Part shown: one piece after another, positions 50,210 to 51,945 of the stretch
Layout: each line of letters opens with the position of its first letter
Position numbering within the stretch: position 1 is the stretch's first letter
Assembly (NCBI GenBank): GCA_021816845.1
Contig: JAKAWT010000001.1
Coordinates: 198,087-262,086, forward strand
DNA from: a bacterium
Lineage (GTDB): Bacteria > Patescibacteriota > Dojkabacteria > JAKAPS01 > JAJZLI01
Reading direction: 5' to 3'
DNA length: 64,000 nt
Made by a program: the position numbers and the translations under genes
The notes under the pieces: model-generated
Databases searched by the model: none
Told to the model about the DNA's origin: nothing
The model's input: the letters and a program-made list of their open reading frames with translations, nothing else

Positions 50210-50920
50210 ATGGTTTATTTTAACACGGTTCATAAGGATATGCCCTTAATGTTTTTTTCTGGTATAATTTTAAAATACATGAAAAATCATTTTCTAGATC
50301 AGGCAAAACAGATAATTTTTGGTATGCAGGATGGATTAGTATCAACTATAGTTCTGTCAACAACTGTAGCAGGTATAACACACAACAACTATTATATAAT
50401 AATAGCAGCAGTAGCCGAAGGTCTTGGAGGCGGTATTTCCATGGCAACAGGAGTGTATCTAGGCTCTAAATCTCAAAAGGAAATATTGGAAGCTAAAATT
50501 AAGGGAGATGAAGATATGAGAGATGAAGCCATAAACAAATTAGAGAATGATGGAATAGATAAGAACGACGCAGGAGAAATTATTAAACTACTTTATAAAT
50601 ATCCTGTATCAAAAGCTAAACTTATTCCTAATATAGTACTAGGTCAAGATATAGATTCTACACTAAATCCATATATGGAATCATTCTTCATGGGAGGATC
50701 TTTTATACTAGGTTCAATTGTACCAATAATTGCATATTTCTTTCTAAAAGGTATTGATGCTGTTATACTATCTGTAATATTAACTGCCTTAACTTTATTT
50801 TTTGTTGGTGTAATGAAAGGTAATTTTGCAAATCTTTCAAAGGTAAAAAGTGGGTTAGAAATAATGATAATAGGCATGTTAGCAGGCTTACTTGGATATA
50901 TACTTGGTATAGTATTATGA
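50210..50920 (+). CDS. VIT1/CCC1-family iron/manganese transporter
   Basis: 'FGMQDGLVSTIVLSTTVAGI' matches the VIT family N-terminal motif, with 5 TM helices. The real start is possibly an internal Met (MKNHFLD, about 50279). Confidence 0.7.
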   Translation: MVYFNTVHKDMPLMFFSGIILKYMKNHFLDQAKQIIFGMQDGLVSTIVLSTTVAGITHNNYYIIIAAVAEGLGGGISMATGVYLGSKSQKEILEAKIKGDEDMRDEAINKLENDGIDKNDAGEIIKLLYKYPVSKAKLIPNIVLGQDIDSTLNPYMESFFMGGSFILGSIVPIIAYFFLKGIDAVILSVILTALTLFFVGVMKGNFANLSKVKSGLEIMIIGMLAGLLGYILGIVL

Positions 50921-51945
50921 ACGAAGAATTATCAAAATTAAAGAATAAAGTAGATATAACAGAAATGCCAGTTGACCTAAAGGAGAAAGTCGATGGTATG
51001 ATTGAAAGGCTTGAAAGAATGGCCCAACATGGAAATTACTCCTCAGAATATGAAATTGTTTCAAAATATATAAATGTAATAACAGAATACCCTTGGAATA
51101 AACAAACAACAGACAATCTTGATATTAAAAATGCAAAAGAAGTTCTGGATAAAGAACATTATGGAATTGATGATGTAAAAGAGAGAATTCTGGAATATAT
51201 TGCTGCCATGAATATGAACAATACTCAACAAGCACCAATTTTATGTTTTGTTGGATTACAGGGTATAGGTAAAACAACTATGGGGAAATCTATAGCTGAT
51301 GCCTTAGGAAGAAAATTTATACGAATATCTCTTGGAGGTATGGGATCATCTTTAGAGATAAGAGGACAATCTAAAGCTACACCTGACGCTGAGGAAGGAT
51401 ATATAATAAAAGCATTAATAAGATTACAAACCAATAATCCCGTCATACTCCTTGATGAAATTGATAAAATATCAGATGAGAAAAGTGTACGCTCATCAAT
51501 AATGGCAACATTATTAGAGCTTTTAGATCCAGAACAAAATTCTACATTTTTTGATCATTACATGGATTATCCCGTTAATCTGTCAAAAGTTATGTTTATT
51601 TTAACTGCAAACAATCTAGGAAGTATTTCTTCTGCATTGCTTGATAGATTAGAAATTATCCGTTTTCCATCCTACACTGATGAAGAAAAGTTAATTATTG
51701 CAAAAGAATATATTATGCCTAAAGTATACAAAACGATAGGTGTAACAAAAGATCAACTTGAAATAGAAGATGAGGTATGGGCTAATATAATAAGACCACT
51801 AGGATATGAAGCTGGTATAAGAGAACTCGAGAGAACTCTTATGGGTATAGCAAGGAAAGCTGCAAAACAAATACTTATGGATAACAAAACCAAAGTTACG
51901 ATTACAAATGATAACGTAAAAACATATTTACCATTAGGGTATTAG
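50917..51945 (+). CDS. Stand-alone Lon-type AAA+ ATPase module (no N-terminal LAN domain, no S16 protease domain)
   Basis: Walker A '[42 protein letters not shown]', Walker B '[11 protein letters not shown]' and '[45 protein letters not shown]' are collinear with the LonA AAA+ domain. The ORF ends with TAG right where the protease domain would begin. Start overlaps the VIT1 stop (ATGA). Confidence 0.75.
   Translation: [342 protein letters not shown]

Follow-up and report, generated by a model that had tools for sequence, protein, structure and literature searches.

A stand-alone LonA-type ATPase without a protease domain, conserved in WWE3, Dojkabacteria and Microgenomates, and its possible role as a chaperone or remodeller

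What is left for a Lon motor to do when its gene contains no protease domain? Lon is the textbook AAA+ protease, with motor and peptidase on one polypeptide, and the question is raised by a gene at positions 50917..51945 (forward strand) of a 64,000-nt stretch of Dojkabacteria DNA (contig JAKAWT010000001.1, assembly GCA_021816845.1), which we refer to at its full length as the window. The gene encodes a stand-alone ATPase of 342 amino acids (aa) whose identity as a LonA-type module we consider near certain. It is intact and conserved across hundreds of species, and no member of the family has a Lon N domain or an S16 protease domain in this gene. Our overall reading is that the protein is an intact member of a LonA-derived family that would assemble into an ATP-hydrolysing ring without a peptidase of its own and would serve as a chaperone or remodeller; taken as a whole, we give this reading an even chance of being right. 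The family is apparently undescribed so far; the literature searched, which included the WWE3 genome paper but did not cover all journals, held no description of a protease-less Lon protein of this type, and one Lon review describes all Lons as single chains that combine an ATPase with a protease domain (PMC9569914). Domain loss alone would be ordinary. What makes the case worth pursuing is the combination of a perfect ATPase site throughout the family, a rewired acidic pore loop and the lack of a linked peptidase: a protease-less LonA motor conserved in hundreds of species offers a natural system in which to ask what a Lon ring is capable of when proteolysis is absent, and which of its properties rely on the protease domain.

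The LonA ATPase module and its family

The gene and the two subdomains that flank its AAA+ core are as follows.

50917..51945, forward strand: stand-alone LonA-type AAA+ ATPase gene, 342 aa (list of open reading frames, Pfam, TIGR00763, PDB, AlphaFold2/Foldseek)
50917..51216, forward strand: N-terminal helical region, residues 1-100, corresponding to the LonA helical bundle before the AAA+ core (E. coli residues ~250-345), from alignment with E. coli and B. subtilis LonA
51667..51933, forward strand: Lon-type lid (alpha) subdomain, residues 251-339 (Pfam Lon_lid at 274-326; PDB alpha-subdomain matches 1x37, 1qzm and 4git)

The open reading frame (ORF) begins with an ATG that overlaps the stop codon of the upstream VIT1 gene as ATGA (GTA TTA TGA / ATG AAC). 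Pfam recognizes AAA (79.5 bits) and Lon_lid (50.1 bits) in the 342-aa protein, with no match to Lon_C (PF05362, S16) or to the Lon N domain (PF02190). The NCBIfam model TIGR00763 ('lon') gives 368.8 bits over profile positions 252-572 of 795, a score kept below the cut-off of 608 by the lack of two of the three Lon domains. In the PDB search the match to LonA was far beyond chance, with B. subtilis LonA (3m6a) at E 1.2e-83 and E. coli Lon (6u5z) aligned over residues 250-579, and the end of the protein falls at E. coli residue ~579-585. The ATPase is hence collinear with LonA residues ~250-579, comprising the helical bundle and the AAA+ large and lid subdomains. An AlphaFold2 model computed from a 30-sequence family alignment reached a pLDDT of 92 and a pTM of 0.87, with helices in the N-terminal region at residues 2-14, 19-36, 42-57, 70-80 and 85-100. 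Foldseek superimposed this model on LonA and LONP1 chains with TM scores of 0.87-0.90 over 332-342 columns, covering the bundle, the alpha/beta subdomain and the lid, so that the fold, as modelled, is that of the LonA ATPase module.

An initial annotation of this DNA had described a stand-alone LonA-type AAA+ module with the start and end boundaries given above, and the ORF list, Pfam, TIGR00763 and PDB bear it out; a 29-residue peptide that it had quoted for the alpha-subdomain is present in the translation, and the ATGA overlap that it had pointed out can be read in the sequence. It had also named RuvB and ComM as AAA+ clades to which the protein might belong instead. RuvB identity was rejected on scores of 19.8 bits for RuvB_N (cut-off 27) and 21.7 bits for TIGR00635 (cut-off 299); RuvB, Clp and other AAA+ models reached ~20-30 bits, compared with 369 bits for Lon, and profile searches with the ATPase returned no match to ComM or ChlI. 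The TM scores to LonA and LONP1 likewise speak against these clades. A further concern of the initial annotation was a frameshift or contig error that hides a protease domain downstream, although none had been visible in it by eye. The next gene is indeed, as it had stated, a family-4 uracil-DNA glycosylase (UDG4) and not a protease domain (TIGR00758, 208 bits), and a frameshifted protease domain could not fit in between, since the UDG4 gene is intact and starts 18 nt past the ATPase stop; a Lon_C hidden Markov model (HMM) applied to the window in all six frames found nothing. An assembly error was dismissed as well: 9 contigs encode the 342-aa protein in identical form, and the four of these places that were examined lie in four different assemblies with the same borders and neighbours (GCA_021840985.1, contig JAKBWC010000001.1 of 355,690 bp; GCA_027425395.1; GCA_027425355.1; and one ENA assembly), and the stop position is the same in 86 homologous loci. 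All factual elements of the initial annotation proved correct; its two more interpretive statements, on a split Lon and on coupling to VIT1, are taken up below.

A word-indexed search with the ATPase returned 5946 relatives at E <= 1e-10. The best 120 of these 5946 are all 340-460 aa long, and none of the 120 contains Lon_C. Those that have a name are called 'AAA family ATPase' (Patescibacteria, Dojkabacteria, Curtissbacteria) or, in the annotation of the Joint Genome Institute (JGI), 'ATP-dependent Lon protease'. Members are thus annotated inconsistently, as 'AAA family ATPase' by NCBI versus 'ATP-dependent Lon protease' by JGI; the latter name wrongly implies a protease and overstates the proteolytic capacity of genomes of the candidate phyla radiation (CPR). 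When 1.84 billion representatives were searched exhaustively with phmmer, ~17 clusters (50% identity) composed solely of short proteins that lack Lon_C ranked ahead of ordinary LonA proteins (~770-830 aa), which appeared from ~288 bits downward. Scanning one genome per GTDB species with the signature peptides [IV]RP[LF]G[FY][DE][AS]G[IV] and FxDHY[ILV]D[YF]P yielded at least 584 stretches confirmed by tblastn in species-representative genomes, from which 80 loci were kept; these are labelled as WWE3, Dojkabacteria and Gottesman-, Shapiro-, Beckwith-, Ames- and other Microgenomates, the complete genome CP006914.1 among them. The locus set analysed below consists of 86 sequences (the window and L001-L085), 83 of them non-redundant.

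The gene stands alone in 86/86 loci and ends within 7 codons of the LonA lid end. Longer members owe their extra length to low-complexity Q/N/S/P-rich tails or inserts only, and additional domains in these extensions were ruled out. We define the family by a core of 340-460 aa made up of helical bundle, AAA+ and Lon lid, by the two signature peptides and by an end at [YF][LIM]P plus 0-7 residues. The window protein carries both signatures (the second as FFDHYMDYP), ends in YLPLGY and shares 49-93% identity with members, the alignments spanning 70-100% (mostly 98-100%) of its length. When 199 AAA+ regions were placed in a neighbour-joining tree, the stand-alone proteins, including that of the window, grouped in one clade with a bootstrap of 153/200. 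Judged from these sequences, the stand-alone ATPases appear to be a conserved, monophyletic LonA-derived family that, among the matches listed, is confined to the WWE3/Dojkabacteria/Microgenomates part of the ultra-small CPR/Patescibacteria.

ATPase site and pore loops

The residues considered here, all on the forward strand, were counted over 198 distinct family members.

51253..51276, forward strand: Walker A, G113-L-Q-G-I-G-K-T120 (LonA: GPPGVGKT)
51454..51459, forward strand: Walker B, D180-E181 within ILLDEIDK, encoded by gatgaa; invariant in 198/198
51610..51612, forward strand: sensor-1, Asn232 (E. coli N473); invariant in 198/198
51646..51648, forward strand: arginine finger, Arg244 (E. 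coli R484) within LLDRLEII; invariant in 198/198
51820-51822, forward strand: sensor-2, Arg302, within the lid; invariant in 198/198
51364..51399, forward strand: pore loop 1, residues 150-161, with Thr-Pro-Asp in place of the LonA Tyr-Ile/Val-Gly

In Walker A, G113, G116, G118, K119 and T120 are each invariant in all 198 members, while positions 114 and 115 are L/I/V and Q/V in the family (G[LIV][QV]GxGKT) as against the two prolines of LonA. The N-terminal helical region has its own set of invariant residues (P18, R31, Y51, P59, H81, G83 and K88). All residues expected from the alignment to be required for ATP binding and hydrolysis are thus invariant, the trans-acting arginine finger included, and this pattern suggests that the ATPase site is under purifying selection. 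The arginine finger works in trans, on the adjacent subunit; that it never varies may therefore be taken as an indirect sign of an oligomeric, ATP-hydrolysing ring.

Pore loop 1 presents a different picture. It has the same length as in LonA, the 12-residue loop of the window protein being aligned without gaps with E. coli GHRRTYIGSMPG, and the motif itself has changed. At the position of E. coli Y398 the 198 members have F (43), N (30), Y (23), E (20), H (18) and others; the I399 position is P in 116 and L in 34; and the G400 position is D in 127, E in 34 and G in 23, amounting to Asp/Glu in 161/198 members. The residues that follow, A-E-P-G, are nearly invariant in the family. The mean net charge of the loop is -1.1 in the family versus +1.9 in LonA, and that of the lid is +1.1 versus +3.8; the pore-loop-2 region of the family has a 2-residue insertion relative to LonA. 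From these alignments, the aromatic-hydrophobic-Gly motif that LonA uses for gripping and threading polypeptides appears to have been lost in most members. A ring that threads DNA was considered too, but an acidic pore and a lid of lower positive charge make it less likely.

A degenerate pore loop, together with the frequency of domain loss in reduced genomes, might suggest that the gene is a decaying lon remnant, that is, a pseudogene or non-functional relic, or else an assembly artefact. This explanation is effectively refuted by a reading frame that is intact in all 86 loci, by ATPase catalytic residues that are invariant in 198 members, by a mean column identity of 53% across deep lineages, by the confidence of the AlphaFold2 model (pLDDT 92) and by the occurrence of the identical sequence in independent assemblies; we consider its probability negligible.

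Peptidase partners, possible function and gene neighbours

A protease-less motor might still degrade proteins if its ring docked in trans on an S16 ring encoded elsewhere, as ClpX does on ClpP or HslU on HslV. Such a split Lon was one of two options left by the initial annotation, the other being a Lon-derived unfoldase or regulator. In favour of the former, the end of the gene coincides exactly with the AAA+/protease linker, ClpX and HslU, which are related unfoldases, operate in this way, and many members carry, beyond the conserved C-terminal [YF][LIM]P, a tail whose last or last but one residue is aromatic (YLPSW, GVYS) and which could serve for docking. The tails after [YF][LIM]P are clade-specific (YLPSW, YLPIGY, PEDIGVYS, PEGIGTLS), their terminal or penultimate residue being aromatic or hydrophobic, and the VYS type is reminiscent of HbYX, the motif by which proteasomal ATPases dock. 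The very difference between clades speaks against a common docking function, however, the WWE3-type tail consisting of a single residue (YLPK/Q). The loss of the threading motif from pore loop 1 in most members also makes a poor fit for a translocase that feeds a protease, and the genes of ClpX/ClpP and HslU/HslV are usually adjacent. The surroundings of the ATPase gene were searched with a Lon_C HMM that was derived from the protease domains of E. coli and T. thermophilus, with the PDB serving as a check. It found no Lon_C in the six-frame translations of the 64-kb window and the 85 other loci (~1.5 Mb), hence none within 10 kb of the ATPase in the 83 non-redundant loci, and none in an extra 10 kb to the left of the window (L090). 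By Pfam, 24 of the larger ORFs of the window include no Lon, Clp or Hsl peptidase and are ordinary housekeeping genes (SecY, EF-Tu, L2, FtsK, RNase J, DnaJ, P-type ATPase, Met aminopeptidase and others). Judged from these loci and from the window with its left flank, a split Lon seems unlikely to us, and the evidence leans toward the second option of the initial annotation.

With moderate confidence in the mechanism, which is deduced from sequence features, we propose that the ATPase assembles into a Lon-like ring hydrolysing ATP between subunits, and that this ring would work without its own peptidase as a chaperone or remodeller, with clients being bound, held or reshaped instead of being fed into a protease chamber. 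The acidic pore entrance would favour basic clients, and the grip on them would probably differ from canonical threading. The housekeeping clusters around the gene (rpsO-pnp, L25, nusA-infB, RNase J, UDG4) would be in line with a constitutive cellular role. Yeast Pim1 and human LONP1 reportedly show chaperone activity independent of proteolysis, and a chaperone function is therefore plausible for a protease-less descendant. Several points weigh against this proposal. Ring formation and ATPase activity are predicted from conserved residues alone, and the E. coli Lon AAA+ fragment 6n2i is listed in the PDB search with a single chain. The protease ring contributes to the stability of the LonA hexamer, so that a ring without it is not guaranteed. 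A loop without the aromatic residue might mean that the protein does not act on polypeptides at all; conversely, about one third of the members keep F or Y at the Tyr position, and the loss of threading is thus not uniform. Finally, a protease partner acting in trans may be encoded outside the stretches searched.

A more far-reaching version of the chaperone/remodeller proposal, which we put forward only tentatively, is that the WWE3/Dojkabacteria/Microgenomates branch has replaced its Lon protease by this ATPase, free of protease and N domains, as its sole Lon-type protein, and that the acidic, non-aromatic pore would serve a chaperone or remodeller, possibly for basic nucleic-acid-binding (e.g. 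ribosomal) proteins. If this were true, the branch would represent a natural separation of the long-debated chaperone function of Lon from its proteolysis.

The gene neighbourhood was analysed by clustering 1509 ORFs from the 86 sequences. The two neighbours of the ATPase gene in the window, and the loci of two recurrent upstream contexts discussed below, are as follows.

50210..50920, forward strand: VIT1-family (Fe/Mn) transporter gene, upstream of the ATPase gene (Pfam VIT1, 141 bits)
51963..52517, forward strand: UDG4 gene, downstream of the ATPase gene (TIGR00758, 208 bits; cut-off 125)
L009, L020, L027 (9027-9971), L037, L038, L041, L043-L046, L049, L053, L057, L058, L060, L068, L074, L078, L085: loci with the gene of a ~314-aa protein
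L033, L061, L062, L064, L070, L072, L075, L076, L081: loci with SufS/U-like genes

The dominant gene order is NusA-IF2-DHH-S15-PNPase-(zinc-ribbon/transmembrane protein, in WWE3 only)-ATPase-(NUDIX, in some)-UDG4-RNase J-FtsK. Dojkabacteria loci have YidC, Jag and L25 upstream of the ATPase gene. In the clade of the window itself, the NusA-IF2-DHH block is inverted and VIT1 lies directly upstream of the ATPase gene; in the window, PNPase (43887..45962, forward strand) comes before the minus-strand genes for DHH, IF2 and NusA (43887-50091 in all), the inversion lying between pnp and the VIT1-ATPase-UDG4 unit. RNase J (38785-40449, minus strand) and FtsK (8986-11142, forward strand) are displaced in the window relative to most relatives. 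The translational coupling to VIT1 that had been proposed initially is real, yet the arrangement is restricted to the closest clade (window, L001, L007 and L008). VIT1 was discarded as a general functional partner: it lies upstream in only 4/83 loci, and the coupling is therefore lineage-specific and incidental.

The linkage to UDG4 extends further. UDG4 is the immediate same-strand downstream gene in 31/83 loci, usually with a spacer of at most 22 nt or an overlap (17 nt in the window), and is found somewhere in the locus in 46/83. This could be read as a nucleic-acid-linked role in which the ATPase works with UDG4 (and NUDIX) or with PNPase/RNase J, for example in loading, recycling or remodelling on DNA or RNA. 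Such a role would be in line with the conservation of the linkage in three upstream contexts (PNPase, VIT1 and SufS/U), with the NUDIX gene lying between the ATPase and UDG4 genes in several loci, with the dominant order running from S15 and PNPase through the zinc-ribbon protein and the ATPase to UDG4, RNase J and FtsK, and with LonA and its lid subdomain being known DNA binders (PDB entry names). The linkage is, on the other hand, lineage-dependent, being present in 37/43 loci of PNPase context and 4/4 of VIT1 context but in 2/9 of SufS/U context and 1/14 of Dojkabacteria; no domain fusions join ATPase and UDG4; and an acidic pore loop with a less basic lid is the opposite of what a ring engaging DNA or RNA would need. 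In our view the UDG4 linkage chiefly reflects synteny inherited within compact genomes and hints at best weakly at function, and we see only a slim chance that the ATPase has a nucleic-acid-linked role of this kind.

Some features of the neighbourhood deserve mention in their own right. WWE3-type loci have a gene for a ~314-aa protein directly upstream of the ATPase gene, with stop and start often overlapping (-1, -4, -8); the protein has an N-terminal zinc ribbon, one transmembrane helix and an unannotated C-terminal domain, and Pfam gives a double zinc ribbon below threshold only. About nine loci, judged by eye, have SufS-like (class-V aminotransferase/cysteine desulfurase) and SufU/IscU-like genes upstream of the ATPase gene. 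UDG4 is a 4Fe-4S enzyme, and VIT1 in the window, the SufS/U-like genes upstream in these roughly nine loci and UDG4 downstream may form a loose iron/Fe-S theme. A scan for promoters and terminators gave no more sites than shuffled sequence.

Elsewhere in the window, positions 52501-62370 (minus strand) hold a run of probable surface-protein genes. Four of its ORFs encode 297-363 aa, the first with a Big_6 Ig domain and the rest with weak or no Pfam matches; the run includes Ser/Thr/Ala-rich, low-complexity proteins and ends with a 1922-aa protein with TIG and multiple Kelch repeats. Positions 3222-8118 (minus strand) encode a 751-aa histidine kinase with a 7TM-like N-terminus, a 499-aa protein without Pfam match and a protein of the ThiF family (E1-like); the three genes directly adjoin one another, each stop overlapping the next start. 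In the 10 kb to the left of the window (L090, contig DAIBVT010000002.1), positions 406-4387 encode a 7TM_transglut protein and three ATP-grasp/RimK-like ligases.

Comparison with known systems

The closest known relatives are the LonA proteases (endopeptidase La; E. coli Lon, B. subtilis LonA, human LONP1; MEROPS S16A), which share with the family the helical bundle, the AAA+ large subdomain and the Lon-type lid at 37-43% identity, together with Walker A and B, sensor-1, the arginine finger, sensor-2, the pre-sensor-1 hairpin and the LDPEQN motif. LonA additionally has the LON N-terminal substrate-binding domain and the S16 Ser-Lys protease domain, neither of which occurs in the family, and the two further differ in the Walker A consensus, in pore loop 1 (Y-[IV]-G in LonA, acidic in the family) and in the pore-loop-2 insertion described above. 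Four of five LonA features tested are lacking in the ATPase (the protease domain, the N domain, a score above the equivalog cut-off and the pore-loop motif), the AAA+/lid module with intact motifs being the one that it has; the ATPase should therefore not be annotated as a Lon protease.

Lon-type AAA+ and lid modules without the Lon N domain also occur in tandem-AAA Lon proteins of Dependentiae/Babeliales (P0121, P0129 and others). These modules are, however, fused in cis to Lon_C, belong to another phylum and, at ~40% identity to the ATPase, are no closer to it than ordinary LonA. Eight such proteins (P0121, P0122, P0124, P0125, P0127, P0128, P0129 and P0141) of 890-1675 aa have two to four tandem AAA+/Lon_lid modules followed by one Lon_C, without Lon N; MFC1854773.1 and HEV2601538.1, the ones with names, are both from Candidatus Dependentiae/Babeliales. 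We know of no published description of this architecture.

BrxL of the BREX system and DolB of PADLOC are, like the family, AAA+ proteins related to Lon without being classical proteases. BrxL has retained a Lon-like C-terminal domain and is part of a defence system, whereas the family gene lies among housekeeping genes. The ATPase was also considered as a defence-system component and rejected; its one PADLOC match of note is DolB, which is weak (58.7 bits). PADLOC gives no match for UDG4 or VIT1 next to it, and the other neighbours are housekeeping genes by Pfam.

ClpX and HslU, of the HslU/ClpX/Lon/RuvB clade, are like the family in that a single AAA+ module is encoded without a peptidase domain, and they provide a possible model for working in trans, although their sequence similarity to the ATPase is negligible compared with that of Lon. 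Both keep aromatic pore loops, have docking elements (an IGF loop or a C-terminal tail) and are normally encoded next to their peptidases, in contrast to the family with its lost pore motif and its lack of a peptidase gene within 10 kb in the 83 loci. With the ClpB/Hsp104-type chaperones, as with the chaperone activity of Pim1 and LONP1, the likeness would lie in ATP-driven remodelling without degradation, and is put forward as an analogy. The ClpB/Hsp104 type belongs to another clade and has, unlike the family, two AAA+ rings, an M domain and aromatic pore loops. By sequence, the ATPase is a member neither of the ClpX/HslU group nor of the protease-free AAA+ chaperones; by analogy, it may work like the former if it has a partner and like the latter if it has none.

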